Notes under the pieces: model-generated
What the model was told of the DNA's origin: nothing
Databases searched by the model: none
Seen by the model: only the letters and a program-made list of their open reading frames with translations
Origin: a phage
Length of the DNA: 64,000 nt
Direction: 5' to 3' (one strand)
Sequence record: PZ091942.1
Part shown: positions 23,001 to 45,435 of the stretch, piece after piece
How the letters are laid out: each line of letters starts with the position of its first letter
How positions within the stretch are numbered: the first letter of the stretch is position 1
Made by a program: the position numbers and the translations under genes

Positions 23001-23008
23001 AGGCGAAT

Positions 23009-23959: not shown

Positions 23960-24758
23960 GCGTGCTTTCCTTATTGGTTCTGACCCTGAAATGTTTGTTC
24001 GTACCGCTTCTGGTATTATCACCTCTGTGGCTGGTAAGCTGGGCTGTTCCAAAGATAACAAAATCGATCTGGCCCCTGATGTTCGTCTTCAAGAAGACAA
24101 CGTTCTGGCTGAGTTCGATATTAACCCACAGAAAGGGTTTGAAGCGTTTGATGATAACATCCAGCGTGGTATTGATCTGACCAACAAAGTTCTCCATGAA
24201 CGTGGTATGGAAGCTGCACTTGGGATTAGCTCCCATGTGTACACTTCTGAAGAGCTGGAATCATTCCACCCGTCAGCCTTCGTATTTGGCTGTACTCCTG
24301 ATTTCAACGCCTTCACTGGTCAGAAAAACCCATCTCCGGTAGCGACAGACAAAGGTCTGCGTACCGCTGGAGGTCACGTTCACCTCGGTGTTACTGGTAC
24401 ACTGGAAATTAGTCGTCAGACTCAGATGATGCTGGGTGTGCTGTGCGATTACTTCCTGTCACTTCCAGCGGTTGTGATGGACAAGGACACTCGTCGTAAA
24501 GAGCTTTACGGCAAGGCATCTGCGATTCGTTATAAAGATTACGGTATTGAATATCGTTCTCTGTCAAACTTCTGGATTGGTGAACAGTCCACTCGTAAGT
24601 TTGTTTACGATCAAGTTGATAAGGTTATTCAGGGCTGTGACATGGAAACCCTCATGTCTCTGCATTCCCGTTTGCCTATCGAAAAGCTTCACAACATCAT
24701 CAACAGCAACGATGTTAAAGAAGCGGATAAGTTCTCCTCTCAACTTCAGATTATCTAA
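23952..24758 (+). CDS. carboxylate-amine ligase-like protein (GCS2/amidoligase-like, tentative)
   Basis: Track ORF 23907..24758 trimmed to ATG 23952; motifs LIGSDPEMF and GGHVHLG resemble the GxExE / HVHxG signatures of GCS2-type ligases. Confidence 0.5.
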   Translation: MTKRAFLIGSDPEMFVRTASGIITSVAGKLGCSKDNKIDLAPDVRLQEDNVLAEFDINPQKGFEAFDDNIQRGIDLTNKVLHERGMEAALGISSHVYTSEELESFHPSAFVFGCTPDFNAFTGQKNPSPVATDKGLRTAGGHVHLGVTGTLEISRQTQMMLGVLCDYFLSLPAVVMDKDTRRKELYGKASAIRYKDYGIEYRSLSNFWIGEQSTRKFVYDQVDKVIQGCDMETLMSLHSRLPIEKLHNIINSNDVKEADKFSSQLQII

Positions 24759-24767
24759 GGTGTTATC

Positions 24768-25394
24768 GTGAGCCTGTTAAGAGATTTTCAGCATTATTAT
24801 TGCGGAACATGGATTGCCCAACGTGCAGAACGAGGGATTAATCTCCCTCTGTATGTACTCAACGTAAGCCAACCAAGCCGCTTTGGGGAAGATGACTTCT
24901 CCCACGAAGCCGAAATGGCCTTGACCTTTGAAGTTGAACGCTGGTCTAAGAACTCCGAAGGGCAGTTTGAGCGACAAGTTGTTCAGGGTATCCCTGTGTT
25001 TGATCAGAGTCTGATTCTGGAATCTCCAGATGTGGGCTATCTACAACATGGTAACAACATGGTAAGCTGGACTCATATCAACCCTGTTCGTCAGCGAGCT
25101 AAAGGTCTGATGGGGAACAAGCTGCGTGGTGCACCTCCTTCAATGGGACGTTCAATTCCGGGAGAGCTGGTGTATAACCTGTTCAACCCTGACTTTGAAG
25201 GTCTGGTTACTCGCTTCATCTACATTAACCCTGTTGATGGTAAAGTTTATTACAAAGGGGCGCTTGTAGGTCAAGTTGATCTTTCTGCTGGTTACGGCGA
25301 CAACGGTCGTCAATCTTTAAATCTTCTGGAGAAGTTCAAGCATATTTCTTCAGACCTGTCATCATATAATGTAGAGTTGGTGGAAACGTTATGA
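24768..25394 (+). CDS. hypothetical protein (208 aa)
   Basis: ORF track (GTG start, AAGGTG SD). Confidence 0.55.
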   Translation: MSLLRDFQHYYCGTWIAQRAERGINLPLYVLNVSQPSRFGEDDFSHEAEMALTFEVERWSKNSEGQFERQVVQGIPVFDQSLILESPDVGYLQHGNNMVSWTHINPVRQRAKGLMGNKLRGAPPSMGRSIPGELVYNLFNPDFEGLVTRFIYINPVDGKVYYKGALVGQVDLSAGYGDNGRQSLNLLEKFKHISSDLSSYNVELVETL

Positions 25395-26491
25395 CAACCG
25401 TAGCACAAGTTTTTGGATACCGTAATGCTCGTCTGGCTGAGCCGCACCCAAGCATCGCTTTTCAGTGTGGTATTGGCATCGAGCTGGAAGTTGAAGGAAC
25501 CTCTGAAATTGATGCAGACCTTTGGGTTTGTACTGAAGATGGTTCACTTCGTGATGGCTGTGAGATGGTTTGCGCACGGCCTTACAACGGTGTAGAATTG
25601 CTTCGTGCTATTAACAATCTGAGTGAAGCAGTACAAGACTCTGAAGCTGAAGGGACTTGGCGCTGCTCTACTCATGTTCATATGGATATGCGTGACGCTG
25701 ATAGTAACATCCTGAAGAAAGTAATTCTTGGATGGACGTTCTATGAAAAGATGATGTTCAAATGTTCTGGATACCATCGCTATCGTAGCAACTTCTGTCC
25801 TGCCTTTGCTGTTGTTCAAGCACAGGTAATGAATGCTTCCGCAGCGTTCAACCGAGATGGTGAAGCCTTCTTCAACACTCTTGTTAATAGCTGGGACAAG
25901 TACACCTCCCTTAACCTATTACCTCTGGCTCAGTTTGGTTCTGTTGAGTTTCGTATCTCAGAGCCGAAGTGGAAGAAAAGCCAACTCCTGAATCTGGTCA
26001 ACCGCTTCTTGGTTCTCAAGAAACTGGCTGTTGAATATGCAGATTTGGACAATGAAGCATACGTTGAGAAACTGAATGAGCTTCGCTTCGCTCCTATGAT
26101 TCAGTATCTACCTCTGGACTACACGCCTAATGATAATGATCTTACTGAAGGTTATCGTTTGGCTCGTGACATTCTGTTCTGTCGTGAACGTTCGGTTACT
26201 CTGGTTGGTCGTGTTCGTGTACAACAGACTGGCCCTGATGGTGAAGTCCTTATCAACTTGCGTGATATGGGTGACTTCTATGGTTTCTTGGGATATGTAC
26301 GGGGTAATGCCAACTCTGTTTACGAAGAGATCATGACATATTACACCCCTCAGATTGAAAACACTCGAATCGCAACGGTTCGTGAAATTCGTCACATGTT
26401 TACTTTGATGCGTGAATCAGGTAGCAGTGATGATAACGTCACTGGTTATATTCCAGACCATCTGGAAATGCAATTAGAACGACTGCTGTAA
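25391..26491 (+). CDS. GS/GCS2-like amidoligase
   Basis: ORF track; motifs GIGIELEVEG, EDGSLRDGCE, STHVHMD, GSVEFR typical of glutamine-synthetase-fold carboxylate-amine ligases. Confidence 0.6.
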   Translation: MTTVAQVFGYRNARLAEPHPSIAFQCGIGIELEVEGTSEIDADLWVCTEDGSLRDGCEMVCARPYNGVELLRAINNLSEAVQDSEAEGTWRCSTHVHMDMRDADSNILKKVILGWTFYEKMMFKCSGYHRYRSNFCPAFAVVQAQVMNASAAFNRDGEAFFNTLVNSWDKYTSLNLLPLAQFGSVEFRISEPKWKKSQLLNLVNRFLVLKKLAVEYADLDNEAYVEKLNELRFAPMIQYLPLDYTPNDNDLTEGYRLARDILFCRERSVTLVGRVRVQQTGPDGEVLINLRDMGDFYGFLGYVRGNANSVYEEIMTYYTPQIENTRIATVREIRHMFTLMRESGSSDDNVTGYIPDHLEMQLERLL

Positions 26492-26568
26492 CACAATGGG
26501 CGCTCTGATAAAGGGCGCATTTAAAGGTTAATTAGATGAAAGGGTTTACCCTTCAGGTGGATTAGAAA

Positions 26569-28602
26569 ATTTGTGGTATCGTATTAGCTGGGGGCAACAT
26601 GACCTCCACAGACTTAGACGTATTCAACCAGCTTCTGTATGCCGGAGTCTTCCGTGGTCAGCACTCAACTGGTGTGTTCGGTCAGCGTAAAAGTGATGCA
26701 AGAGTGTTTTCTTATAAAGAAGCACTTCCTTCTTATGCTTTCATGCTTCAGACAGAGTACACGAATATTACTAAGGGGCTTACGAACTATGTAGTTCCTC
26801 CAGCGTGGATTGTTGGTCATAGCCGACATGCCACTCGTGGCGCTGTCAATGCTCGAAATGCTCACCCGTTCTCTCATGGTGACATTACTCTGGTTCACAA
26901 TGGTACATTGATGGACCAAGAGCTGTTACCTGACCATAAGAACTTCGAAGTTGATAGCGAAAACATCTGTCATTCAATCAACACCATTGGTGCAGCAGAG
27001 ACTATCCAGAAGTTGGATGGTGCGTTCACTTTAATCTGGCATGATGCCAAAGACAATACTCTGCATATCATTCGTAACGATGAACGTCCTTTCCATCTGG
27101 CCCGTTGTGGTCTGGATTGGTTTGGTGCTTCTGAAGAAGATATGTTGATGTGGATTCTTAATCGTTCCAAGTCACACAAGAACCGTATCAATGATCACTT
27201 TGAATGTAAAGTGGGAACTGAATACATCTTTGATTTGTCTGGCAACCGTATGACTCTGACTCAAGAGGTGGAGCACAAGCTTCCGGTTTTTACGGTAACG
27301 AGTCGCTGGGGCGGCTATTACTCGAACTCCTCTCTATATCAGAACCAACAGACAAACAAATCAAGCAGCAGCACAAGCGACATTTACGGAAACAAAGACG
27401 ACAAGCCCGGCGTGACAAGCGGGGACATTCGCCGTCGTAAAGCGATTGAAGATCAGAATAAACTGGCTGCCGATCGTGGTCTTCCATATCGTCGTGATGG
27501 TCGTGTGGATATCATCCCTCACGAGTTCCATGCTTACAACAACACTGACCGTGGTAAGATGGTTGGTTATATTTATGATGATGCTGCTCAAGAATATGTT
27601 GAGGGTGATGTTCATAATGTAGCCAAGAGTGAGTACTTGAAGGCTCTCGAAAACCCAAAGGTAGTGTATCGCGGGACAGTTGCTTGTATCTCCGAAGTGG
27701 ACAGTATGATTCGCCTCGTACTCACTTCAGGGCTGTTTGTTGATGCTACCGATAAGGAGCCTCAAAGCACTACCGCTGATTTTGATGATGATATCCCTTT
27801 TGATTTAGAAGACTCCTTCATCACTAAGAATGGTGTGGAAGTCACTCGTAAGTTCTGGGAATCTCATTCTCATGGTGATTGTGGCGGTTGTGACAAGCAC
27901 ATTGAATGGAAAGATGCTAAGAAAGCTGTGTTCGCTTACCAAGCATATTGGCATCCGGCCTGTTTCGAAGCATTGTCCAAACCATCGGAAGAAGATGAAG
28001 ACATCCCTTTAGGTGTCTGTGCTGTGTGTGGCAATGTTAAAACTGATTTCGAGTTTGATAACGAAATGAGTAAACTTCGTGGTGAAGATATTTGTTATGT
28101 CTGTGCCAAAGAAATCAAAGACAAAGTGACTAACACTACATTGTCTGAAGGTTACATTTGGACTAAAGCAGTTGACACAACTAACCCACGCCGCCCTGAA
28201 GTAGCAGTTCGTGTTGATCAGCGTATGCTTAGCCGGATGATCGTAATGGTTAGCTCAGCTAAGCGTTCTGGAGACATTGAACTGTCTGATGTTCCTAATT
28301 CTTATTTGGAGAAACGTGGTGGTGATACTTATGCCATCTCTGTTTATGGTCCAAAGAATGCCCCAAAGGAGGTGCCCGCTGAGAAAGCGGAAACATTTCC
28401 AGAAAAACAAACAACTCTCCGAAAAACAGTTGTCAGTTACGATGGACAGCGAACAGCTGAGTTCACAAAAGCCCTCTGGACTTCAATTGGGTTTTGTGCA
28501 GTCTGTTATAAACAAATTCCGTGGCGTGATGCAGAAGTTTGCTCACTAAACAAAGAAAACAGGGTGATCTGTAATTCAGATTACTGTAAAGGTAAACATT
28601 AA
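26569..28602 (+). CDS. class-II glutamine amidotransferase domain protein with Cys-rich C-terminal region
   Basis: Track ORF 26599..28602; GHSRHATRG...NAHPF...HNG motifs; in-frame upstream codons ATT-TGT-GGT-ATC-GTA encode the canonical CGIV N-terminus, so start placed at ATT 26569 (AGGTGG SD 8 nt upstream); C-terminal half has several CxxC pairs. Confidence 0.7.
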   Translation: MCGIVLAGGNMTSTDLDVFNQLLYAGVFRGQHSTGVFGQRKSDARVFSYKEALPSYAFMLQTEYTNITKGLTNYVVPPAWIVGHSRHATRGAVNARNAHPFSHGDITLVHNGTLMDQELLPDHKNFEVDSENICHSINTIGAAETIQKLDGAFTLIWHDAKDNTLHIIRNDERPFHLARCGLDWFGASEEDMLMWILNRSKSHKNRINDHFECKVGTEYIFDLSGNRMTLTQEVEHKLPVFTVTSRWGGYYSNSSLYQNQQTNKSSSSTSDIYGNKDDKPGVTSGDIRRRKAIEDQNKLAADRGLPYRRDGRVDIIPHEFHAYNNTDRGKMVGYIYDDAAQEYVEGDVHNVAKSEYLKALENPKVVYRGTVACISEVDSMIRLVLTSGLFVDATDKEPQSTTADFDDDIPFDLEDSFITKNGVEVTRKFWESHSHGDCGGCDKHIEWKDAKKAVFAYQAYWHPACFEALSKPSEEDEDIPLGVCAVCGNVKTDFEFDNEMSKLRGEDICYVCAKEIKDKVTNTTLSEGYIWTKAVDTTNPRRPEVAVRVDQRMLSRMIVMVSSAKRSGDIELSDVPNSYLEKRGGDTYAISVYGPKNAPKEVPAEKAETFPEKQTTLRKTVVSYDGQRTAEFTKALWTSIGFCAVCYKQIPWRDAEVCSLNKENRVICNSDYCKGKH

Positions 28603-28613
28603 GAGGTGAAGTT

Positions 28614-28847
28614 ATGGAAGTTCGTAAATTGATGTTGGATAACGTTGTAACCACTCGACGTATCCCAATGACAAGCACAGGATGTGACAACCTTCGAGCT
28701 ATTCAGAAATGGATGCAAGAGGGTATTGGGGGACTGGTTAACTCTCCAGTTGAAATTCCTTTCCCAACCGTTATCAACAACGTGTTGGCTGACTATGTGA
28801 AATTGAAGGGGATTAAAGTTGAGCCTCATGTCAAGCAAGGGAGCTAA
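28614..28847 (+). CDS. hypothetical protein
   Basis: ORF track; GAGGTGA SD. Confidence 0.55.
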   Translation: MEVRKLMLDNVVTTRRIPMTSTGCDNLRAIQKWMQEGIGGLVNSPVEIPFPTVINNVLADYVKLKGIKVEPHVKQGS

Positions 28848-29049
28848 GCCTCACCTGACAATGCTGGAGTATCAACAACTCCGACTTCAACAACTGGTAA
28901 CGGAGCAGCGAAAGCTGTATCCGTTTGCTTTTAACCTAATTGATTCACCAAGCGATGACCAAGAAGACGAGATGTTCGCCAAGTATTGGGAAATCGAAGT
29001 TAAAATTCAATCCTGTCGTAACGAAATTCTTAAACTAAAAGGTATCTAA
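28819..29049 (+). CDS. hypothetical protein (start uncertain)
   Basis: ORF track; overlaps upstream gene; no clear SD. Confidence 0.4.
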   Translation: MSLMSSKGAKPHLTMLEYQQLRLQQLVTEQRKLYPFAFNLIDSPSDDQEDEMFAKYWEIEVKIQSCRNEILKLKGI

Positions 29050-29051
29050 AA

Positions 29052-30299
29052 ATGACTACTCGTATCCGTGTTCTTCCGTATGGCCCTTCTGATTCTGTTA
29101 ACGCTCTGGTAACTGCCATTAATGATACTATCCGTGATGAACGTATCAACGCTAACGTAATGGGTCTTCTTTCAGAGAACAGCCGCTGGCGTTCTCGTGA
29201 AGGTGATGTGGTTGTGAACTACGGGAACCGTCGCTATCCTGAATCATTCTTTGGTTCTGCAACTGTTCTGAACAGCACAGCATCTCTGCATATGGCAGCG
29301 AACAAGCGTCGTGCTTTTAGCGTGATGGACCAAGCAGGTGTTAAAACAGTTGAATATACAGATGTTCAATCAACTGCTCAAGAGTGGTCAAACTCTGGCA
29401 ATATTGTGTATGAGCGTCATGAACTGACTGGTCACTCTGGTTCAGGCATTGTTGTTGTAGAGCCTCGTGATTCGGTTGGTCAAGCTGAACTGTACACCAA
29501 AGGTATCCTAGGCCCACGTCGTGAATGGCGTGTCCATGTGTTCAAAGGTGCTATCACCTATGTTCAGAAAAAGATTCGTCGTAACGGTTATCGTGAAGAC
29601 CCTAACTATCGTGAAGATGTTCGTAACCATCACACTGGTTGGGTTTACTCAAGTTCCTTCACAGACGTTCCGAACGACACCTCTCTGATCAACGCAGTGA
29701 AAGCTGTTGAATCAATGGGTCTGGATTTCGGTGCAGTTGATATCATCACCAAAGGTCAAGAAGCATGGGTACTGGAAGTTAATACAGCACCGGGCCTAAC
29801 TGGCACAACTCTGGATATCTACCGTCATAATATCCTTGAGTTTGTTAAAGCTCAAAACCCTCTTTATACTCCTCAGTATAAAGTAGTTTACCAGACTCCT
29901 GTTGAAGCTCCAATCGAAGACGGAGACGGTGAGTTGGTTGCTGACAGTGAAAGTGCTGACGATGAAAACTTTGCACTGGAAGGCCAAGTAGCACAACCGG
30001 TTGATTCAGTTGATGTGGTTCCTGAAGAAATGCAACTGGAAGGTCAGATGAATACTCAAACTATTCGTAATGCACCTACTGGTTATGTGTTGTCTCGTGG
30101 TTATTGGATTGCCAACATCCGTCATGTTCATAACAACCTGCAACCAAATGCAATGGCTGCCAATGTCATTCTGTTCTGTGATGGTCGTAACTTCTACCGC
30201 TCTGGTTGGAACGTTCCGGTCAATCCAGTCCAGATTCATAACCCTCGCAAGTTAGAATCTGTCAATGTTGAAGGTAGTGAAGTAGCAGTAACTCTGTAA
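29052..30299 (+). CDS. ATP-grasp family ligase
   Basis: ORF track; motifs HSGSGIVVVEP, DFGAVDII, EVNTAPGLTG matching ATP-grasp (RimK/GshB-like) fold. Confidence 0.7.
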   Translation: MTTRIRVLPYGPSDSVNALVTAINDTIRDERINANVMGLLSENSRWRSREGDVVVNYGNRRYPESFFGSATVLNSTASLHMAANKRRAFSVMDQAGVKTVEYTDVQSTAQEWSNSGNIVYERHELTGHSGSGIVVVEPRDSVGQAELYTKGILGPRREWRVHVFKGAITYVQKKIRRNGYREDPNYREDVRNHHTGWVYSSSFTDVPNDTSLINAVKAVESMGLDFGAVDIITKGQEAWVLEVNTAPGLTGTTLDIYRHNILEFVKAQNPLYTPQYKVVYQTPVEAPIEDGDGELVADSESADDENFALEGQVAQPVDSVDVVPEEMQLEGQMNTQTIRNAPTGYVLSRGYWIANIRHVHNNLQPNAMAANVILFCDGRNFYRSGWNVPVNPVQIHNPRKLESVNVEGSEVAVTL

Positions 30300-30325
30300 T
30301 TAAATTAAACAAAAAGGAATTTGTA

Positions 30326-30568
30326 ATGTTGTCTATCGAAGATTTGATCAGCCGTGGAATGACCGAAGAAAAAGAGCCTCTGATTGTAGGCTCTCGTAAA
30401 GCTATTAACCAACTCTGTGAAGAGTTTGGCATCACAAACAAGAGAATGATTGGTAATCAGTTCTCTGCAATCATCACCTTCCTCAAACGAGGTGATAAAT
30501 ATTCAATGGAATGTGTTGAGCGTATCATCGCAATTGCACAAGAAGATAAGGGAGTAACAACTCTGTGA
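30326..30568 (+). CDS. hypothetical protein
   Basis: ORF track; AAAGGAA SD. Confidence 0.55.
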   Translation: MLSIEDLISRGMTEEKEPLIVGSRKAINQLCEEFGITNKRMIGNQFSAIITFLKRGDKYSMECVERIIAIAQEDKGVTTL

Positions 30569-30750
30569 ATAAATATACAATCATGTTTCGTACAGTATCA
30601 GCAGAAGGGAATATTCAATCTCTGGACATTCAAGCAGACCGCTTTGAATCACTTGGAACAAATGTTAATTTCTTCCGAGGTGCAGAGCTAGTAGGTATGT
30701 TCCAATCTGATGTATTGACTGGTGTGATCAAACACTTCGAAGTAGAATAA
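30565..30750 (+). CDS. hypothetical protein
   Basis: ORF track (GTG start overlapping upstream stop). Confidence 0.45.
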   Translation: MNKYTIMFRTVSAEGNIQSLDIQADRFESLGTNVNFFRGAELVGMFQSDVLTGVIKHFEVE

Positions 30751-30807
30751 TTTGCTTTAGCCTCTTCGAAAGAGGGGGCTAGTTCGAATTTAACTGGAGG
30801 TTGTAAA

Positions 30808-31224
30808 ATGGTTGATAATAAACTGGATATGTTTAAAAGTCGTATCTTAGATGTAGAGTATTCCAAAAACCTCTTTGAGAAACATAAGAAAGAGGCAAAG
30901 GAAGAATTAGAAAGTCTTCTGAAAGATGAAGAGATTCCACTCTTTAATCGCTGGTGCCTGTTTATGGAGCACAGCTCCCTTTTCCCTGTGGCTTCTAGCT
31001 CTATCAGCAGAGCTGTTAACTATGCAGTAGACCGTTATTATGACTTGGAGAGATATCGAACCTACACCCTCTCTGATATTTTTGAAGAGTATTGGTTCAA
31101 GGAAAAAGAATTGTCGAACAGTGATCTTGTGGAAGCTGTTAAGGAGAGTTTTGAACTAATCTCTGAAAAAGATGTTCGATCAATCATCTTCTCCGGATAT
31201 TCTGGTTTCCTATACGATTGGTAG
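30808..31224 (+). CDS. hypothetical protein
   Basis: ORF track; GGAGG SD. Confidence 0.6.
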   Translation: MVDNKLDMFKSRILDVEYSKNLFEKHKKEAKEELESLLKDEEIPLFNRWCLFMEHSSLFPVASSSISRAVNYAVDRYYDLERYRTYTLSDIFEEYWFKEKELSNSDLVEAVKESFELISEKDVRSIIFSGYSGFLYDW

Positions 31225-31230
31225 ACAGTC

Positions 31231-31428
31231 ATGAAAAAGATTTTACTCCTCCTCTCCTTATTCAGCGTATCAGCAATCGCCGCTGATGAATGCATCTCTA
31301 AAGATTCAGGGAGAGGTCAAATCGTAACTCAATGTGGCAGCCATGTAACGGTTGTCGATTCTATAACTCAAACAATTCTCGTGTGTAACGGGACTTCTTG
31401 TACAAAAGAAATTCTAAACAAAAGGTAA
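31231..31428 (+). CDS. small secreted Cys-containing protein
   Basis: ORF track; signal-peptide-like N-terminus. Confidence 0.5.
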   Translation: MKKILLLLSLFSVSAIAADECISKDSGRGQIVTQCGSHVTVVDSITQTILVCNGTSCTKEILNKR

Positions 31429-31432
31429 TGTA

Positions 31433-31864
31433 ATGTCTGATAAAGTATTAGTTGCAACGTATGGTTCTCTTCGTAAAGGTCAACACAACCACGCTATCAA
31501 TGCTCGTGCCGGTGGTGTGTCTATTGGTGAAGGGTGGACAGTAAACAACTGTAACCTGTATCAGTATTGCACAGCATACTTCCCAAGTGTATCTCTGGTG
31601 CATGACAGCAATGGCAAGCCTGTTCGTGTAGAAGTCTTTGAAACAACCCAAGCTGGTCTGGAAGGTCCGTATGACGGTCTGGAAGGTTATCGTGGTAAAG
31701 ACAATCCGTACACCTTCTATAATCGTACACTGATTCCAGTAGTGCTGGATAATGGTGAAACTGTGGAAGCATGGATTTATCATATCGACGAAGAACAAGA
31801 TGTTCTGGTTGAATCTGGTGACTGGACAGCGTATCTGGCAGGTGAACAGGATGACAGTAACTGA
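31433..31864 (+). CDS. gamma-glutamyl cyclotransferase (AIG2/GGCT-like)
   Basis: ORF track; N-terminal VATYGSLRKG motif and downstream Glu (EAWIYH). Confidence 0.7.
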   Translation: MSDKVLVATYGSLRKGQHNHAINARAGGVSIGEGWTVNNCNLYQYCTAYFPSVSLVHDSNGKPVRVEVFETTQAGLEGPYDGLEGYRGKDNPYTFYNRTLIPVVLDNGETVEAWIYHIDEEQDVLVESGDWTAYLAGEQDDSN

Positions 31865-32057
31865 GCGACAGAAGCTGAGAAAGCTTGAGTCTGATTACTT
31901 AAAGTTACGGTGGAAGATTAACCGTTATGATAAGTTTGTCAGTATGCTTGACCGCAATAAACATTCTGAAGATTTTATCATGAGAACCCAATCAGCTTTA
32001 CAGGGTTTTAAAAGTCTTCAAGATGATGTGTGGGAAGAAATACGTTCGTTTTATTGA
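31851..32057 (+). CDS. hypothetical protein
   Basis: Internal ATG of track ORF 31752..32057; overlaps GGCT 3' end. Confidence 0.45.
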   Translation: MTVTERQKLRKLESDYLKLRWKINRYDKFVSMLDRNKHSEDFIMRTQSALQGFKSLQDDVWEEIRSFY

Positions 32058-32093
32058 AGAAGTCTGCTCAAGGAATTCCAAGGAGGATAGAGC

Positions 32094-33884
32094 ATGTCAA
32101 AGATCATCCTAGGAGATACAGGTTGTAAAGAATGTATCTCTCATGGTCGTGATAAGACCCACAATCACATGATTCTCTTCCGAAATGAAGAGTCCGGTGA
32201 AGAGTGGGGCAGTTGTAATCGTTGTGGTAGTTATGAAGTTTTCGAAAAGGGAACAACTCCTACACCGAATGAGAAGAAAGAACTATCCCCTGAAGAACTC
32301 CGAGAGATCTTAGACGATTGCTTAGAGCTACCTCAGGGTGAGCTTACTCGTCGTTTGATTCCTAAAGCTGTCTCTGAACGGTATGAATGTCGTATTGGTT
32401 TAAGTCAGACAGATGGGCAAACTCCTGACAGTTATTTCTTCCCTCGTGAACGTGATGGAAACATTGTTGGTTATGAAGTTAAGCTTCTGGACAGCAAGAA
32501 GTTCTATTACATTGGCAGTGTTAAAGAAGCCGACTTGTTCGGCATGGCTCAAGCACAGCGTGGTGATGTATACAACAAGAAGCTCTTCATCTTTGAAGAC
32601 CCACTTTCTTGTATGTCTGGTTTCCATGTGCTCACTGCGTTCACGAACGCTACAAACATCAAACCTGCTTGTGTATCTCTACCGTTCGGTGCAGGTTCAA
32701 TCTCTTCCGTTCTATCACGTAACCGTGACTTCTTGAACGGTTTTGAGGAGATTGTACTCTGCATGGACAATGATGATGCGGGTGAGATTGCATTAACTAA
32801 AGGTCGTGCATTATATCCACATGTTAAGTTTGCTCGTATTCCGAAAGGAACCTTCACTTATAATGGTCAAGAGAAGGAGATCAAAGATGCGAACGACATG
32901 TTACTCGCTGGTCGAGGTCAAGAGCTATTCAACAATCTGAAATACTCAGCGAAGCGGGAATCGCCTGCTGGTGCTGTTACTGTCTTTGATTGCTTAGAAG
33001 ATGCTCTGAAGAAAGCGGAATGGGGTATTCCTTATCCGTGGAAAACTCTGAATGAGATGACCTTCGGCATTCGTTGGGGAGAGATGGTTGCTATCGGTGG
33101 TGGTGTTGGTTCAGGTAAAACCTTAATCGCACACGAACTGGTAGCATGGCTTTGCCTTGAACATGGTTTTAATGGTGGTGGCTTCTTCTTGGAAGAGAAG
33201 GTAGGCATGTCTGTTAAGAACATTGCAGGTAAGTCAGCATCTGTACCTTTCCACCGACCTGATGTTGAGTATGAGGAAGCTCAGTTACGTGACGAAGCAC
33301 TTCGTTACGCTGATAAGTTCTTCTTGTATGACAACTTCGGACAGAACGAGTGGGATGATATTAAGCAGTGTATTCGCTTCTGGGTAGTCGAGAATCAGTG
33401 TAAGTTTATCATTCTTGATAACATTACTGCGCTAGTCTCTCACCTAACTCCGTCTGAGGTGAATACAGAAATCAGTAAGATTGCTTCAGAGCTTGCTGGT
33501 ATGTGTAAGGAATTAGACTTCACTGCTTTTGTATTATCTCACTTGAATGCTCCGGCAGGTGGTGCTCCTCACGAAGAAGGTGGACAGGTGAAAGAAGTTC
33601 AGTTCACTGGTTCACGTTCACTAATGCGTTGGTGTCAGTGCATCATCGGTTTTGAGCGAGATAAGCAAGCTGATGGGTTAGGCAAGAACTTGTCAATCAT
33701 ACGACTCCTCAAAGAGCGTAACTATGGTCAGACAGGTGTTTGCTACACCAAGTACATCAATGAAACAGGTCGACTTGTAGAACGAGAAGATCATGAAGTT
33801 GATGAAGCTAATCCGTTTGTCTTGACCAATGGTGAGGATGCAGCTTCTCTGCTCACACAAGACGGGGAGGCACGACCTTGGTAA
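32094..33884 (+). CDS. T7 gp4-like primase-helicase
   Basis: ORF track; GGAGG SD; N-terminal Zn-ribbon (CKEC...CNRC), [14 protein letters not shown], Walker [10 protein letters not shown], Walker B FIILDN. Confidence 0.9.
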
Positions 33885-34426
33885 AGAAAATATTCGCCTT
33901 CGATATCGAGGGTGATAATCTTTATGAGGGCATCCAAAATGTCTGGTGTATCTGGATATTTGATGCTCTTACAGGTGAACGGTGGGGGTATCGCCCTCAC
34001 CAAATTGAAGAAGCTCTTCACAAACTGAAAGAAGCTGATGTAGTTGTAGGTCATAACATTATCGACTTCGACCTTCCAGCTCTCTTTAAATTCTACTCTC
34101 ATGTAATACCTTTCCACTTCAATGTCTTCGATACACTTTGCCTGAGTCGTTATCTCAAGCCTGACCGTATTGGAGACAATCCAGAATACCCCAAAGGCGA
34201 CCCTAGACATGGCCCTCGTGGTCATGGCCTCAAGCAATGGGGCGAATTCCTGGGTGAGCTGAAGGGTGATTATGGTGAGCAGGAAGAAGCATGGGATGCA
34301 TTCACTGAAGACATGTTCACATATTGTGAGCAAGACGTTAACTTAACAGTTAAGGTTTACATGTGTCTTTGCCAAATGGCAGGATTTGATTATAAGAATC
34401 CCCCATCTCTCAACTGGAAAATGTAG
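33878..34426 (+). CDS. DNA polymerase I-family 3'-5' exonuclease domain protein
   Basis: TTG start with GGGGAGG SD; Exo I FDIE, Exo [14 protein letters not shown]; strong by-eye match to T7 DNA polymerase N-terminus. Confidence 0.8.
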
Positions 34427-34428
34427 AA

Positions 34429-35877
34429 ATGATTAAGATTCCATTGTCTGAATTGAACCTTCAAGAAGGAGAAGCCCTCAGTGTAGGGCTTGACCTAATT
34501 CGTAATTTGATCAGAGATAACGTAGTCCCTGATGGTATCTATCCTGTCATTGCAGGTGGTGCTATCCGTGATACGTTCTTCCAAAATCGAACTCCGAATG
34601 ATGTTGATATCTTCCTAGTTCAAGGAGGGCTTCGTTGGAACACTCGTCAGGAAAACAGCCCTGCTAACGTAGGTAATGCTGCACTTTTCCTTGACAACTT
34701 CTTATCTTGGACAGAAAGTAAGGGGCTTCAGGTTACATCTCGACTAATTCAGCCTGTTAACGGGACAACCTATGCTGAAGCGCTTTTCACTTTCCAAGAG
34801 ATTCTGGAAATTGAGATTGATCAAGTTAAAATCCAGATGATGATTAATCTACCTTTGGATATGGATACTTTAAGCCGTCGCTTCCCTATGATCTGTCAAG
34901 GGTTTATGACTCTTGGTAATCTGTATGTGTCAAACGAAGGTTTGTTTGCAATGTCATACACTCGTGACATTCCTGTGGTATCTAGTCGTGAAATGAAGTA
35001 CGTTCACAAGAAGTGGCCTGAAGCAACTGTTGCAGTTTATAGCAGTTCTACCGAATATATGCACCTTGCAATGGGAGCTTTCGGTGAGCCAGAAGTTCAC
35101 CTGATTAGTGATTTAGTTGGACCTATGGCTGGTGTAAATTTATATCAGAATCAGCGTCGTCATTATACCCTGAAGATGATGGAAACTATATTAAACATTC
35201 CTCAGGAAAGGGGTCGTAGTTATCTGGACGAGGAAGTTAACCTACAGACAGAATGGTCTAGTGGATTAACCACTATCGGTGCTGAAGCAATCACACAACC
35301 TTGGACTCCGGGAACCAACAGACGTGACTCTTGGCAACAGGAAGTCCCAAGATTCGCAGCCCCTTCTACAATGGACCCTCGTAATACTTTTAATGGCAGT
35401 TTTGGTAGTGCACGTTCTTCTGGGACGGACACCCACAACCGTACATGGCATGTTCAAGGGGGAACTGCTCGTCCTATTCCTTCTCCGTCAATGGGTGATT
35501 TACAGCGTTCTCGTCGTTCATGGGAAACAGTAAGCTCAGTTGTTCAGGGTCTACGTGCTGGTGATATAGAACGTGTAGAAGTTGGTGATTTGCCAACCCC
35601 TATGGAAGATCGAGTGTCAACTATAGCGGCTCGTGAAGCTGCTCGTGTTGGTTTTCCATCTTTAGCTAATGATGCTAACAATACTCCTCGACCTGTCGGT
35701 CGTCGTAACGGTCTGGCTCACTCTGACACTGCACTTGGTGCAGAACTTCGAGCTGCTGCTCGTGAACTATCTGGTGAGCTTCATAACAACTTAGCAGGTG
35801 TTACACTATCTCGTGAAACAGCTCGCAACATGATTAACAATTTGGCATCATCTGTACAAGGAAATAGAAACTCATGA
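34429..35877 (+). CDS. Pol-beta superfamily nucleotidyltransferase (CCA-adding/poly(A) polymerase-like head domain)
   Basis: ORF track; IAGGAIRD-x9-DVDIF matches GGxVRD...DxD head-domain motif; C-terminal half is R/S/G/T-rich low complexity. Confidence 0.55.
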   Translation: MIKIPLSELNLQEGEALSVGLDLIRNLIRDNVVPDGIYPVIAGGAIRDTFFQNRTPNDVDIFLVQGGLRWNTRQENSPANVGNAALFLDNFLSWTESKGLQVTSRLIQPVNGTTYAEALFTFQEILEIEIDQVKIQMMINLPLDMDTLSRRFPMICQGFMTLGNLYVSNEGLFAMSYTRDIPVVSSREMKYVHKKWPEATVAVYSSSTEYMHLAMGAFGEPEVHLISDLVGPMAGVNLYQNQRRHYTLKMMETILNIPQERGRSYLDEEVNLQTEWSSGLTTIGAEAITQPWTPGTNRRDSWQQEVPRFAAPSTMDPRNTFNGSFGSARSSGTDTHNRTWHVQGGTARPIPSPSMGDLQRSRRSWETVSSVVQGLRAGDIERVEVGDLPTPMEDRVSTIAAREAARVGFPSLANDANNTPRPVGRRNGLAHSDTALGAELRAAARELSGELHNNLAGVTLSRETARNMINNLASSVQGNRNS

Positions 35878-36407
35878 GTCTTTTAGGTTCTCAAGAATTA
35901 CACAGCGTTATTGATAATGGCTTTTTAGATGCGGAGCATAAATATGTTAACGCTGCTAGCGTGGATATCCGTATTGGTGATACTATCCTTGTTGAAGAAC
36001 AGGCTGACGGCATTGTTGACATTGATGCTAAAGAAAACCTCAAGTGGAAAGAAGTAAAAATCCCTGAAGATGGTATCGTTATCACTCCGGGACAGTTCTT
36101 CTTAGCTCACTCGATGGAAGAGTTTAACCTTCCAGATAATATCTCAAGCCTGTTTGTACTCCGCTCCTCAATGGCTCGTTGTGGTTTAAACCACCTCCAT
36201 GCTGGTTGGGCTGATGCAGGGTTTAACAGCAGTAAACTAACCTTTGAATTTCATAACGTTACCCATAATCATAGCTTACGAGTTCGTGCTGGGATGCGTG
36301 TTGGTCAAATGGTTATGTTCGAACACTCTCACGCTGGTGATGACTCTTATGCAGTGAAGGGTCGATACAACGGCAGTAATGGTGTAGTTGCATCTAAGGG
36401 TGTATAA
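35874..36407 (+). CDS. dCTP deaminase-like (dUTPase fold)
   Basis: ORF track; ASVDIRIG, RSSMARCG, GWADAGF motifs. Confidence 0.7.
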   Translation: MSLLGSQELHSVIDNGFLDAEHKYVNAASVDIRIGDTILVEEQADGIVDIDAKENLKWKEVKIPEDGIVITPGQFFLAHSMEEFNLPDNISSLFVLRSSMARCGLNHLHAGWADAGFNSSKLTFEFHNVTHNHSLRVRAGMRVGQMVMFEHSHAGDDSYAVKGRYNGSNGVVASKGV

Positions 36408-36412
36408 CCAAG

Positions 36413-36604
36413 ATGAAAGAGGAAAAAGCTACTTACTTAGCTGTTGGTTTTATAGTTGGGGCATTTGCTATGGGAGTATTTATATCTAACGTTGGTCCAG
36501 ATTCTAGCGTTAAGATTGAGACGAGAAGAGCTGCTTGTGAAATAAATCTCCCTCGTAGTCAGGTCTGTGTAATGCAGTTTGTCCCTAAATCGGTTGACAG
36601 ATAA
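36413..36604 (+). CDS. hypothetical small membrane protein
   Basis: ORF track; hydrophobic N-terminal helix. Confidence 0.45.
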   Translation: MKEEKATYLAVGFIVGAFAMGVFISNVGPDSSVKIETRRAACEINLPRSQVCVMQFVPKSVDR

Positions 36605-36618
36605 TGGAGTTTGGAACA

Positions 36619-36816
36619 ATGAAAAGACGTTGGGTAGTTCGTATTCACTGGAGTAGTGGTACAGAGTCAATGGGTATTAGGAATACCCGTCAAGAAGCTC
36701 GCGCTCATAAGAAGTTCTTGTTAAGTTGTGAAAGCACAATTAATAAGATCACTATCCACAAAGCTCAAGACTTTAAATCAGGTCGTTTCTATATCAGCGG
36801 AAAGGTACATTACTAA
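36619..36816 (+). CDS. hypothetical small protein, tandem paralog A
   Basis: ATG 36619 with GGAG SD inside track ORF 36604..36816; NTRQEARAHKK...ISGKVHY. Confidence 0.5.
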   Translation: MKRRWVVRIHWSSGTESMGIRNTRQEARAHKKFLLSCESTINKITIHKAQDFKSGRFYISGKVHY

Positions 36817-37031
36817 TGGATAAATTATGGGCAGTTCGTACTAAATGGGCTAACAAAGCTCTTGGTGGTGATTGTATTCAATTATTCAACACAAGACAAG
36901 AGGCTCGTCTTGCTAAGAAAACTATAAAAGCTACAAAAGCTTTAGGAATCGCTGAAAAGGTGGAGATTCATCGTTGGATTGAAAATATCCATAACAGTGC
37001 TGGATTCATATCCAGCAAGGTTTATTACTAG
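36816..37031 (+). CDS. hypothetical small protein, tandem paralog B
   Basis: ORF track; NTRQEARLAKK...ISSKVYY parallels upstream gene. Confidence 0.5.
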   Translation: MDKLWAVRTKWANKALGGDCIQLFNTRQEARLAKKTIKATKALGIAEKVEIHRWIENIHNSAGFISSKVYY

Positions 37032-37101
37032 TTGGTAGTAGATATGATAACTCTCAAATGTATATACAGTATAAGAATATTGTATGAAACAGGAGAGAGT
37101 T

Positions 37102-37431
37102 ATGTTAGATTTGAGTAAAGTGGCCCCGCCATCTGAAGAGATTAGCAAAGCTAAAGTTATGCAGCAGTTCTACCATCGGGATATGCTTGGTCGTTATATC
37201 AAGAATCGTGATGTTGTTGCATGGTCTATTGGAAATCAAGGTTATCTTCTCAAAGTGTTGCAAGTTACTGGCTCAACAGCCAAGCGTGTTAAGGTGTATG
37301 ACCCTGAAATGGGGCGTTCTAAGTCTGTAGACCCACAGAACTGCATCGTTATTACCCAGCAAGTAATGGATAATATTGAACGCAATGTAGCGAACTCAAC
37401 TAACTTAGAGGGAGAATCTCCAAATGCATAA
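37102..37431 (+). CDS. hypothetical protein
   Basis: ATG 37102 with AGGAGAGAG SD inside track ORF 37084..37431. Confidence 0.55.
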   Translation: MLDLSKVAPPSEEISKAKVMQQFYHRDMLGRYIKNRDVVAWSIGNQGYLLKVLQVTGSTAKRVKVYDPEMGRSKSVDPQNCIVITQQVMDNIERNVANSTNLEGESPNA

Positions 37432-37990
37432 TAATGTCTTCGACTTACCAGAACTGACACGAGTGGGTTCTAGCAACCCATTCTCTACAACTGACTCTTC
37501 TATCTCTCGTCTAGAGGGAATGAATAAACTGATCAGTGGTAACAGTCTAGAGCACATCCTATGCGGTGTGCAGGCTAACCTTGAGCTTCTACACATCAAA
37601 GCAAAGAATTATCACTGGAACGTCTCTGGAGCTGGTTTCCAAGGTGTTCATGGTATGTTCGATGAATTAGAAGACTATGCTCGTGAAACTGGTGATCGGG
37701 TAGCAGAGCGAATGCGTTATCACTGTATTAAAGTGGATGCAACAGCTAGTAGCTATCTTGGTTGTGCTTGGTTCCGAGAAGGTAACGCTGATCTCGACAT
37801 GGACGGTATGCTTTCCGACATGTGCATGACTCTTATGTGTATGATTGAGAAGATGGATGAGTTTGATTCAGACTTGTGCACCTATCCAGTAGACCAGAGT
37901 ATGCTTCAAGAAATTAATGAAGGTCTTGGCAAGTTCTGTTACTTCGTCAAGAGCAACATGTCCCACTCTAGTGGCGATGTGTCTTACTAA
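37424..37990 (+). CDS. Dps/ferritin-like protein
   Basis: ORF track; GAGGGAG SD; LQANLELLHIKAKNYHWNVSGAGFQGVHGMFDELEDY matches Dps signature. Confidence 0.55.
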   Translation: MHNNVFDLPELTRVGSSNPFSTTDSSISRLEGMNKLISGNSLEHILCGVQANLELLHIKAKNYHWNVSGAGFQGVHGMFDELEDYARETGDRVAERMRYHCIKVDATASSYLGCAWFREGNADLDMDGMLSDMCMTLMCMIEKMDEFDSDLCTYPVDQSMLQEINEGLGKFCYFVKSNMSHSSGDVSY

Positions 37991-38053
37991 TCAAACCTCC
38001 GCCCTGTCTCTTTGTTTAAGAGGTGGGGCGAACTTCTTTATAAGGATATGAAT

Positions 38054-40838: not shown

Positions 40839-41159
40839 ATGATTAATGATAATACATTTAGGACTGGTAACGGAAACGAGATTAGTCCTGCTGAAGTGAT
40901 TAAACGACACAGAACACAGATGCTTATCCACTCCTATTTGTATTATTGGTTGGATGACCCAATCTGGTCTGACGATAAGTGGCAACAAGTGGCTGATGAC
41001 TTAACCACCTTGCAGGAGATGTATCCCGAACCTATTGGATTCTTTGATTCAGAGTTTGAAGGATGGAACGGTTCTACTGGTATGCATCTCCCACATGACG
41101 AGCGTATTGCTTGTATGGCTACTGAAGTATATCGTTTACATAAGGACAAATCAATCTGA
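40839..41159 (+). CDS. NAD-dependent DNA ligase domain-Ia-like protein (tentative)
   Basis: ORF track; IHSYLYYWLDDPIWSDDKWQQVADDLTTLQEMYPEPIGFFDSEFEG resembles LigA N-terminal domain Ia (YxYYVxDxPxISDxEYDxL...LE...PEL...DSP). Confidence 0.5.
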   Translation: MINDNTFRTGNGNEISPAEVIKRHRTQMLIHSYLYYWLDDPIWSDDKWQQVADDLTTLQEMYPEPIGFFDSEFEGWNGSTGMHLPHDERIACMATEVYRLHKDKSI

Positions 41160-43574: not shown

Positions 43575-43590
43575 TTATAAGGAGTGGGTG

Positions 43591-45435
43591 ATGGATAACC
43601 CTGATAAGTTACCTTTCATAACGGAGATGACAGTCGCTGATATAATCTCAAAGCAGGCGAAGCATGGCGTCAACTTCCACAGAAGAAACGCTCGGTGGTT
43701 TGTTCACCTTCTCAAAGAGATTATTGTCAATATTGATAAAGAACTGATTCCTCTCCTCCCCAAAATGCGGGTGGATGGTTCAACTTATTCGAAACCTTTT
43801 AAGAAGTCAGGTGCTTTGCAAAAGTGGCCTCAGCTCTATTGTGACAGAGTTGGTCTTAAAAGAGAAGATATCGGTGGGGCGTTTACTTGCGTTGAGTATG
43901 TAGACTTTGACCCATCGAAAGATGCACGTATTAAAGAAGCCTTGATGGATGAAGGCTTCATTCCTCCAGAGTGGAATACATCCAAGAAACCTTGGAATAC
44001 TTATGAAATCCGTAAAGCGATGAAGAAGTATGGCACATATGCTGCTTGGTATTCTGCTTGGATGCGAGGAAACGCTAAAGAAAAACAGACAGCTGAGATG
44101 ATTGATGCTGACATTCGTCGGTTCTTGGATAAACACTTCCGTTATCACACTGTCAACTACATGAAAGCCTACGTCAGCGGTTTAGGTTTGAATCCTAATA
44201 GGAAGAAGCCTGTAACCTTTGATGAAATCAAGAAAGCTTTAGCCATGTCAAACAAGTGGCCTACAGCTCCTACAAACCTTGAGGAGACACTTGAAGAAGG
44301 TCTTGGTGGTGATCTAGGAGGTGTGGGAAGTCTGCTTAAGAGACGCGTTGTAGCGGCTCACAGACTTGGTTTGATTAGCGGGCTTATCGACAAGGAACGT
44401 AAAGATGGTAAGTTGTCCGCCGAAGCTAATAGCTGCGCTACTCCGACATTTCGTTTTAAACATCGCATTGTTGTTAATATTCCTTCTCGCGGTTTGTTTG
44501 GTCACGAGTGCCGCAGTCTTTTTCAATCTGACTATTCCTCAGACGATAGTCATAACTATCCTTTCATCATTACCAACCATATCCCTGATGGGTGTTACGT
44601 ACGAAAAGGTACTAACATTATCTACGAAGTGGGAAAACCGGGCAAGAAAGACAAACCTGTAGGTGCCTATAAATTCTATGTACCTGCTGGTCGTGAAATC
44701 TTCTTAGGTTACGATGGCTCTGGTCTTGAGCTGAGGATGCTAGCTCACTACCTTATTAAAGAATGTCGTGAGATGCTCGCTGAAGCAGAGCGAGAAAACA
44801 ACCCAGCTAAGAAACGAGAAGCTGAACGTGGTCTAGCTTCTGCTGTTATGTACAGAGATATTCTTTTAGAAGGAGATATTCACTCACATAACCAAAAACT
44901 TGCTGGTCTTCCTACTCGCGATAACGCTAAGACGTTTATATATGCCTTTAACTATGGGGCAGGTGACGCTAAGCTAGGAAGTATCGTAGGTGGTGGCTCT
45001 GACGAAGGGGCTATTATGAGAGCAAGATTCTTAGCAGAGAATCCTTGTATTGCAATCCTTATTGAACGTATGACCGAGAAAGCACAAAGTGGATACATCT
45101 ACGGTGTGGATGGACGTCGTATTACAATGAGAAGGGATGCAACTGGAAAGGTTATGGTTCATAAAGCCTTAAATACGCTCTTACAGAGCGCTGGGGCGAT
45201 TGTTATGAAGTATGCAATGCTATTCCTCAATAAATGGATTGAGCGTGATGGTGTTCGTTGTGCGAAGGTTATCGACATGCATGATGAAGGCCAGTTCACT
45301 GTACATCGTGAAGATGTTAACAAACTTCGTACTCTCACTGAAGAGTGTGTTCGTAAAGCGGGTGAATACCTCAAGATGGAATGCCCTCTTGCATCAGATT
45401 GTAAGATTGGGCTTAACTGGAATCATACTCACTAA
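43591..45435 (+). CDS. family-A DNA polymerase, polymerase domain (T7 gp5-like)
   Basis: ATG 43591 with AAGGAG SD; motif A region GYDGSGLELRMLAH, motif B RDNAKTFIYAFNYGAG, motif C VIDMHDEGQF, C-terminal His. Confidence 0.9.
   Translation: MDNPDKLPFITEMTVADIISKQAKHGVNFHRRNARWFVHLLKEIIVNIDKELIPLLPKMRVDGSTYSKPFKKSGALQKWPQLYCDRVGLKREDIGGAFTCVEYVDFDPSKDARIKEALMDEGFIPPEWNTSKKPWNTYEIRKAMKKYGTYAAWYSAWMRGNAKEKQTAEMIDADIRRFLDKHFRYHTVNYMKAYVSGLGLNPNRKKPVTFDEIKKALAMSNKWPTAPTNLEETLEEGLGGDLGGVGSLLKRRVVAAHRLGLISGLIDKERKDGKLSAEANSCATPTFRFKHRIVVNIPSRGLFGHECRSLFQSDYSSDDSHNYPFIITNHIPDGCYVRKGTNIIYEVGKPGKKDKPVGAYKFYVPAGREIFLGYDGSGLELRMLAHYLIKECREMLAEAERENNPAKKREAERGLASAVMYRDILLEGDIHSHNQKLAGLPTRDNAKTFIYAFNYGAGDAKLGSIVGGGSDEGAIMRARFLAENPCIAILIERMTEKAQSGYIYGVDGRRITMRRDATGKVMVHKALNTLLQSAGAIVMKYAMLFLNKWIERDGVRCAKVIDMHDEGQFTVHREDVNKLRTLTEECVRKAGEYLKMECPLASDCKIGLNWNHTH

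Follow-up and report, generated by a model that had tools for sequence, protein, structure and literature searches.

A divergent class II-type nucleotidyltransferase encoded among the replication genes of phiEco32-like coliphages

The gene and its family

This report concerns a nucleotidyltransferase (NTase) gene of a Suseptimavirus phage (Gordonclarkvirinae; phiEco32-like podophages), contained in a stretch of 64,000 nucleotides (nt) of sequence record PZ091942.1. This stretch is referred to below as the window, and the coordinates of its open reading frames (ORFs) are positions within it (Table 1). The gene stands between those for the exonuclease subunit of a split family A DNA polymerase and a dCTP deaminase, downstream of a primase/helicase gene. 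The original prediction, read from the DNA letters, had proposed a CCA-adding or poly(A) polymerase-like NTase at this place, and the frame that it gave is open on the plus strand and encodes the whole product of 482 amino acids (aa).

The gene is real and has been annotated before, as the NTase of phiEco32-like coliphages. The 2.7 kb around it are 97.9% identical to Escherichia phage ECBP2, and its product has 98.1% amino acid identity to ECBP2_0071, which carries the RefSeq name "nucleotidyltransferase." The profile of PHROG 12715 matches the protein over its full length (aa 1 to 475; E = 6.8e-173), and it is a full-length member of the phiEco32 gp73/ECBP2_0071 family with nothing essential different, occupying the same slot between polymerase exonuclease subunit and dCTP deaminase as in ECBP2, phiEco32, and Bas89. 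The gp73 protein of phiEco32 (Kuravirus; 437 aa) can be aligned with it over aa 1 to 283 only, at ~33% identity; the C-terminal tails of gp73 and of the Bas89 homologue, Bas89_0068, gave no alignment to the tail of the window protein. The gene, the NTase nature of its product, and the likeness to a CCA-adding head are already public in RefSeq, the PHROGs, the SU10 genome paper of 2014, and the BASEL collection of 2025, and mass spectrometry of a phage SU10 preparation has revealed the SU10 homologue (PMC4281155).

Searched exhaustively with phmmer, 1.84 billion cluster representatives yielded only 28 proteins at E ≤ 0.001, which are 274 to 482 aa long and cover aa ~1 to 215 or 1 to 285 of the query; at 50% identity, the family counts fewer than 30 representatives in that collection. 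The family alignment used here comprises 26 representatives with ~21 to 29% identity to the window protein, one close relative aside, and its conserved core spans aa ~1 to 215. Residues G43, G44, R47, D48, D58, D60, F62, Y115, I125, Q136, P153, Y191, and K195 are invariant in all 26, and residues 124 and 188 are Asp or Glu throughout. A word-indexed protein search found only relatives of at least 86% identity, and its repetition with the family alignment yielded mainly the same close relatives and no new member. The gene is core in the phiEco32-like lineage. One phmmer match, P0049 (3,044 aa), has 10 separate segments that resemble aa 102 to 168 of the NTase (E = 5e-5). Perhaps a repeat protein, it may be similar to the beta-hairpin region described below by chance or only remotely.

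A class II-type head without motifs B and D

Searched as a single sequence, the window protein matched nothing in Pfam (E ≤ 1), NCBIfam, or the PDB sequences, so its relationship to class II NTases, the CCA-adding enzymes together with the poly(A) polymerases (PAPs) of bacteria, is visible only via profiles and structure. The AlphaFold2 model built with the family alignment is confident over aa 1 to 283 (predicted local distance difference test [pLDDT], ~90), and aa 284 to 482 mostly score below 50. The ordered part has the NTase alpha/beta fold of the Pol-beta-like nucleotidyltransferase superfamily, with a strand-helix-strand unit (aa 37 to 42, 44 to 51, and 58 to 65) in which a glycine-rich turn is followed by a strand carrying DxD. 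Its closest structural neighbors in a Foldseek comparison with the PDB are class II NTases, mainly polynucleotide 3'-end enzymes. A fold belonging to an unrelated NTase clade, one part of the outcome that the original prediction had set against itself, was not seen. Among viral models, the Foldseek matches were small (~135- to 215-aa) "PolyA_pol head" proteins from phages, both T7-like and other ones. The hidden Markov model search that had been suggested as a check was divided in its outcome: the window protein alone has no Pfam match and does not reach the gathering threshold for PF01743, whereas the family profile matches the CCA-adding enzyme 6IBP of the PDB (E = 0.0018) in the motif A region only. 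Weak matches to PF01743, below threshold, were obtained with 17 of the 26 relatives (best E = 2.5e-4).

The sequence IAGGAIRD (aa 41 to 48) is followed, after exactly the nine residues (TFFQNRTPN) that had been pointed out, by DVDIF (aa 58 to 62). This is the arrangement of motif A in class II tRNA NTases (PF01743 head; 1MIV, 6IBP, 3H37, and 1OU5), in which GGxVRD precedes DxD by ~9 to 10 residues. Because G43, G44, R47, D48, D58, D60, and F62 are invariant in the family despite its low overall identity, the motif is no chance match.

Comparison by hhalign of the family profile with the single sequences of Escherichia coli Cca or PcnB was uninformative (probability, 5 to 11%). A small class II alignment was therefore used, together with a bridging alignment of the small NTases of Autographiviridae (LIMEzero ORF22, J8-65 gp17, WRT gp21, and H4/4 gp9; PHROG 1614), which are the closest relatives outside the family. 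The family profile matched the small NTases at 93.9% probability (E = 1.6e-7; 112 columns), including a helix with a W-x-E motif, and the small NTases matched the class II CCA/PAP alignment at 95.5% (E = 1.4e-8), with their FDFNINQF aligned to RRDFTINA. The direct match of family to class II reached 62% (E = 7.6e-5) and was confined to motif A. Since the small NTases bridge the two groups, descent of the family from class II (CCA-adding/poly(A) polymerase) stock is well supported. In Foldseek searches of BFVD, the small NTases had target-normalized template modeling (TM) scores of ~0.5 to 0.6 against the phage NTase. A stand-alone bacterial CCA-head protein that is likewise tail-less, NP_344798.1 (PDB 2LA3), matched far less well than the full class II enzymes did. 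The original assignment to a class II head thus holds for fold and motif A, not for the tRNA repair function attached to it (see below).

Motif A is all that the family has in common with class II enzymes. Motif B (RRD; DxxRRDxTxNA), which recognizes ribose, and motif D ([ED]DxxR), which templates the incoming nucleotide, are absent from all 26 family cores, whereas the class II control alignment shows no variation in the RRD of motif B or in D131, R134, R137, and R140 (numbered as in E. coli Cca) of motif D. This alignment includes E. coli PcnB (PAP I; PDB 3AQL), which has 12% sequence identity to the phage NTase. At the position of motif B, the family has x-x-[FM]-P-x-x-[CSA]. The helical neck, body, and tail domains with which class II enzymes hold tRNA have no counterpart in the model, where order stops at aa ~283 and a disordered C-terminal half takes their place; in turn, the phage NTase has an extra long helix with W94-x-E96 after the DxD strand. 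Nor does the protein have the core with motifs A to E and the basic C-terminal RNA-binding region by which a bacterial PAP I is recognized. The C-terminal region of PAP I is basic, and the tail of the phage NTase is about neutral. Class II enzymes use motif D (EDxxR) as the template for CTP and ATP, and neither the Asp nor the Arg of this motif could be exchanged in selection experiments (PMC11784652). The NTase is not a canonical tRNA CCA-adding enzyme.

The family has a conserved motif of its own at aa 187 to 197, with the consensus R-[DE]-x-x-Y-x-x-[KR]-K-x-P, on a helix spanning aa 186 to 195 in the model. Y191, K195, and D/E188 are found in 26 of 26 representatives, K/R194 in 23, and R187 in 21. 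Although it is not EDxxR, it may sit where class II enzymes have motif D.

Candidates for a third active-site ligand lie on a beta-hairpin (strands 122 to 130 and 133 to 143 in the model). E124, on the first strand, falls in a column that is Asp or Glu in all representatives, and the column of Q136 is Gln in all of them. Alignment by hhalign places Q136 (IQxM) on the only invariant acidic residue that follows DxD in the small NTases, the Asp of VDII, at what we take to be the site of Glu79, the third carboxylate of the CCA-adding enzyme of Geobacillus stearothermophilus. The small NTases keep this Asp, as well as the remnant of motif B (FDFNINQF), whereas the phage family has Gln136. The conserved D/E124 on the neighboring strand may substitute for the third carboxylate.

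The C-terminal tail and the replication gene neighborhood

The original prediction had remarked that the C-terminal ~200 residues are rich in R, S, G, T, and P and that the DNA there is open in several frames, and both observations were confirmed. These five residues make up 45.2% of aa 284 to 482 and 29.3% of aa 1 to 283, the corresponding values for hydrophobic residues being 20.6% and 38.9%, and Arg accounts for 11.6% of the tail, Ala for 11.1%, and Ser for 10.1%. The tail has no Lys against 23 Arg; across the tails of the family, 18 Lys stand against 303 Arg in 3,146 residues (0.57% and 9.6%). The tail DNA has 7 stops in frame +2 and 4 in frame -2, versus 22 and 18 in the N-terminal part. 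This openness follows from codon composition, since codon-shuffled controls give similar open lengths. A hidden overlapping gene or frameshift product was accordingly rejected: the shuffled controls were equally open, and the alternative ORFs are not conserved in 8 relatives. An Rfam scan of the window matched only a tRNA, so the odd composition of the tail DNA is not due to structured RNA. The annotated frame is the coding frame, as judged from the GC content by codon position in the tail (0.62/0.58/0.24), from the indels among relatives, every one of which is in frame, and from the ratio of nonsynonymous to synonymous substitution rates (dN/dS), which is 0.32 in the tail versus 0.08 in the core. 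The tail is under purifying selection and functional.

Within the tail, the last ~50 aa (433 to 482) have ~90% mean pairwise identity among 8 Suseptimavirus-type relatives, compared with 69% for aa 284 to 340, and are possibly an interaction module. The catalytic domain is acidic (family median net charge, -10) and the tail roughly neutral, so that neither part has the look of a surface that binds RNA.

Lysine makes up 1.45% of the NTase, versus a median of 6.6% for 54 window ORFs, which makes it the third most lysine-poor product. Low lysine contents were also found for a PHROG 13102 protein of an amidoligase module (1.9%), a RimK-like ATP-grasp protein (2.65%), a gamma-glutamyl cyclotransferase (GGCT) (2.8%), an amidoligase (3.0%), two DNA ejection proteins (1.2 to 2.0%), and a "membrane protein" (0.58%). 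Besides the NTase, the lysine-poor ORFs are those at 23009 to 23959, 25391 to 26491, 29052 to 30299, and 31433 to 31864 on the plus strand and at 59307 to 60275, 60285 to 61334, and 62155 to 63186 on the minus strand. The depletion might reflect a lysine-directed modification system or avoidance of a protease. Terminator-like hairpins are frequent at 31000 to 38000 (11 found versus 4.1 ± 1.8 in shuffles), several of them within coding sequences and one inside the NTase tail (35625 to 35643).

Table 1. Position of the NTase gene, its parts, and associated features in the window
Feature	Coordinates	Strand	Description
NTase coding sequence	34429..35877	+	482 aa, from the ORF list; orthologue of ECBP2_0071, homologue of phiEco32 gp73, PHROG 12715
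Ordered catalytic region, aa 1-283	34429..35277	+	Class II-like NTase head plus small alpha/beta subdomain
Motif A, aa 41-62 (IAGGAIRDTFFQNRTPNDVDIF)	34549..34614	+	GG turn, putative metal-binding D58 and D60; aligns to GGAVRD...DxD of the CCA-adding enzymes 6IBP and E. coli Cca
Beta-hairpin with candidate third ligands	34798..34836	+	E124 (codon 34798-34800), Q136 (codon 34834-34836)
Family-specific motif, aa 187-197 (REMKYVHKKWP)	34987..35019	+	R187, D/E188, Y191, K194, K195, P197
C-terminal tail, aa 284-482	35278..35874	+	Disordered (pLDDT mostly <50), R/A/S/G/T-rich; length and sequence vary between genera
Conserved C-terminal ~50 aa, aa 433-482	35725..35874	+	Helices 435-455 and 462-481 weakly predicted (pLDDT ~45-61)
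T7 gp4-type primase/helicase	32094..33884	+	Pfam DnaB_C and Toprim; PHROG 239, E = 4e-174; ends ...EARPW; 7-nt overlap with next gene
3'-5' exonuclease subunit of split family A DNA polymerase	33878..34426	+	182 aa; PF01612, E = 9e-7; PHROG 38876/403
ATGA overlap	35874..35877	+	NTase stop TGA overlaps dCTP deaminase start ATG; predicted translational coupling
dCTP deaminase	35874..36407	+	PF22769, E = 1.6e-34; PHROG 1663; immediately downstream
tRNA-Arg(UCU)	17927..18002	+	ARAGORN; Rfam tRNA, 72.5 bits; CCA genome encoded at 18000-18002

The stop codon of the exonuclease subunit gene ends 2 nt ahead of the NTase ATG, and the order primase/helicase, exonuclease subunit, NTase, and dCTP deaminase is kept in ECBP2, phiEco32, and Bas89. 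The block is syntenic across the Gordonclarkvirinae (PMC11990801 S3 Fig). It was also sought around three distant, metagenomic representatives of the family (25 to 29% identity), whose phage contigs reach 89 kb; the four-gene order is complete on two of these, and the contig of the third is too short for more than the upstream gene. In phiEco32, the genes for replication and nucleotide metabolism belong to the middle class (PMC8948821). We regard the NTase gene as a core middle gene of phiEco32-like phages that is cotranslated with replisome partners and the dCTP deaminase.

The small NTases of Autographiviridae, which are 180 to 230 aa long and have no disordered tail, unlike the long-tailed phage family, are similarly placed beside replisome genes. 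Those of LIMEzero and J8-65 directly precede the DNA polymerase gene, that of WRT overlaps the start of the primase/helicase gene, and that of H4/4 lies one small ORF upstream of the primase gene.

An aromatic C-terminal residue (F, W, or Y), often as aromatic-x-aromatic, is found in 9 of the 26 NTase representatives (P ~1e-4). The primase/helicases of the phiEco32-like lineage end in PW or PF, and the helicase and single-stranded DNA-binding protein (SSB) of the T7-like phage WRT end in DF; aromatic C termini of this kind serve in T7 for docking on the DNA polymerase. The aromatic ends may be a shared polymerase-docking motif, so that replisome tethering is hinted at, and only hinted at; the window NTase, which ends in GNRNS, is without it.

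Several neighboring loci were noted in passing. According to the ECBP2 annotation, the polymerase subunit of the split family A polymerase (~43588 to 45435) is encoded ~9 kb farther downstream, next to an HNH endonuclease. A stand-alone 106-aa protein (40839 to 41159, plus strand) is nothing more than domain Ia, which binds NAD+, of an NAD-dependent DNA ligase (PF22745; E = 8e-34) and is annotated "DNA ligase" in ECBP2, though it is without an adenylation domain. Directly upstream of the replication genes, a large conserved module (21780 to 31864, plus strand), which is present in distant relatives too, encodes two COOH-NH2 ligase/amidoligase proteins, a glutamine amidotransferase, a RimK-like ATP-grasp protein, a gamma-glutamyl cyclotransferase, and several uncharacterized proteins. 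In the SU10 phage preparation, the "early" proteins that were detected were the NTase and several members of this module (PMC4281155).

Possible activities and targets

We put at roughly 0.5 the probability that the protein is a minimal, divergent class II-type NTase with a lysine-free, disordered tail, coexpressed with the replisome, that probably transfers nucleotides to a nucleic acid 3'-OH. Most likely, such an enzyme would bind a nucleoside or deoxynucleoside triphosphate (NTP or dNTP) and Mg2+ through G43-G44 and D58/D60, and would transfer the nucleotide to a hydroxyl acceptor without a template. The likeliest acceptor would be a nucleic acid 3'-OH met during the replication phase, and the enzyme would be targeted by its tail or by a partner protein instead of a tRNA-measuring body/tail domain. 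The present data show the fold, the homology, and the motifs of the protein, along with the synteny of its gene and the disorder and selection of its sequence; its catalytic competence, its acceptor, and its role in infection are inferred.

Several points weigh against such a role. To judge from the invariant Gln136, the protein may lack the third metal ligand of the canonical site and could be a weak or noncanonical catalyst. An acidic core with a neutral tail is unusual in a free-standing nucleic acid enzyme. A position within a replication operon is no proof of a replication role, and T7-like class II regions carry anti-host genes too. The small NTases are patchily distributed in Autographiviridae (PMC7693777), whereas the phiEco32-like NTase is core in its lineage. 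Literature searches for experimental characterization of family members found none.

A target among RNAs is the alternative that fares best, though it is unlikely. A PAP-like enzyme might tail RNAs of the host or of the phage, which could, for instance, speed the decay of host mRNA and recycle the nucleotides into DNA synthesis; the disordered tail of the enzyme would recruit RNA or degradosome partners. The phage NTase, however, lacks motifs B to D and the body and leg domains that PAP I has in common with CCA-adding enzymes, its core is acidic, and its tail, with a net charge of ~0, is not basic.

DNA is a decidedly unlikely target, either in covalent DNA modification together with the dCTP deaminase or through a terminal transferase that is tethered to the replisome and acts on primers or on the ends of DNA. 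The authors of the BASEL collection found the Gordonclarkvirinae markedly resistant to restriction-modification, with no known modification pathway, and speculated that the pair of dCTP deaminase and NTase leads to DNA modification (PMC11990801). The window contains 12 EcoRI, 25 EcoRV, and 24 HindIII sites, close to expectation, and 8 EcoKI sites; as EcoRI, EcoRV, and EcoKI sites are present, the reported resistance is not a matter of site avoidance. The strict synteny and predicted translational coupling with replisome genes and the dCTP deaminase also favor a DNA-directed role, as do the aromatic ends that 9 of the 26 relatives share with the helicases of the lineage and with the WRT helicase and SSB, and the loss of the ribose-sensing motif B (RRD). 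In work by Cho and coworkers from 2007, motif B of CCA-adding enzymes is said to govern the choice between rNTPs and dNTPs.

On the other side, we know of no NTase of this fold that modifies DNA bases, ThyX and dCTP deaminase together form an ordinary route of dTTP supply, and the window NTase has no aromatic end. The palindrome content of the window points the same way. CCWGG occurs 5 times versus ~74 expected, many GC-rich palindromes are strongly avoided, and sites for BamHI, PstI, KpnI, NcoI, and SacI are absent (~11 expected each); such avoidance argues that the phage DNA is still exposed to restriction. Overall, 6-bp palindromes stand at 0.59 of expectation. The patchiness of the small NTases among T7-like phages is a further point against a DNA target (PMC7693777). 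The evidence for a protective DNA modification is mixed. CAGCAG is overrepresented in the window (51 versus ~11).

A particular form of this proposal, which we hold to be very unlikely, is a replisome-associated, template-independent transferase without ribose discrimination or base templating that acts on phage DNA or primers, either to mark DNA ends or to carry out a single step in a covalent modification of the DNA. Its lysine-free tail would tether it to the phage polymerase or helicase. If true, such DNA modification would explain the resistance of Gordonclarkvirinae to EcoRI, EcoRV, EcoKI, and EcoP1-type restriction despite the presence of sites.

It is improbable that the target is no polynucleotide at all. 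The protein would then nucleotidylylate proteins or small molecules as an anti-host or anti-defense effector, or would be an impaired NTP-binding scaffold that acts via its tail. The invariant Gln at what may be the third-carboxylate position and the acidic core fit such a role, and so does the lysine depletion of the protein and of the tails of its family, which is perhaps selected by self-modifying or lysine-targeting systems and is shared by the neighboring amidoligase, ATP-grasp, and GGCT proteins. The patchy distribution of the small NTases is, moreover, typical of accessory genes (PMC7693777). Against these stand the closest structures, which are mainly polynucleotide 3'-end enzymes, the invariance of GG...DxD over deep divergence, and the lack of any likeness to defense system NTases in PADLOC. 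A defense-type NTase (CD-NTase, MenT/AbiEii, or MNT) was dropped as a candidate after the PADLOC profiles gave no match.

The original prediction had tied the NTase to a phage tRNA-Arg(UCU) and proposed tRNA repair or RNA tailing. The tRNA gene is present on the plus strand, among small early ORFs 16.5 kb upstream of the NTase gene, and its 3' end reads GGGTGCA-CCA. Dependence of this tRNA on the NTase was rejected, CCA being encoded in the gene. No RNA ligase or polynucleotide kinase/phosphatase (Pnkp) is annotated in the near-identical ECBP2 genome, in which a calcineurin-like phosphoesterase, a PhoH-like ATPase, and the stand-alone ligase domain Ia come closest to such genes. Genuine CCA-adding enzymes do occur in phages, in 463 phage records found by tblastn with E. 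coli Cca; phiEco32-like phages were missing from the 30 records listed and from the summaries by organism and host. To our knowledge, T7-like phages with a related small NTase generally have no tRNA genes. The function proposed at the outset is unsupported, given the absent motifs B and D and body/tail domains, the encoded CCA, and the replisome context, and no finding here points to tRNA as the target of RNA 3'-end addition.

A tRNA 3'-end CCA-adding or repair enzyme, serving tRNA-Arg(UCU) or tRNAs damaged by host acceptor-end or anticodon nucleases, is thus very improbable: class II CCA-adding enzymes do rank with the closest structures and with the best sequence matches in the PDB, the phage has one tRNA, and annotation lists the related small NTases as putative tRNA nucleotidyltransferases (PMC7693777), but the motif D residues irreplaceable for CCA repair are missing throughout the family (PMC11784652), no body/tail domain could hold tRNA, and the core is acidic.

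The main value of the analysis is one of caution, in that the label "CCA-adding/tRNA nucleotidyltransferase" is not justified by sequence for this protein, nor is the same tRNA nucleotidyltransferase label for its small NTase relatives in many T7-like phages. The analysis demonstrates no system of a new kind, and as a finding it adds little to what is public. If the enzyme tails RNA, it would be the smallest class II-type example, and if DNA or the replisome is its target, it would matter for the unexplained resistance to restriction of these coliphages, which are in therapeutic use.

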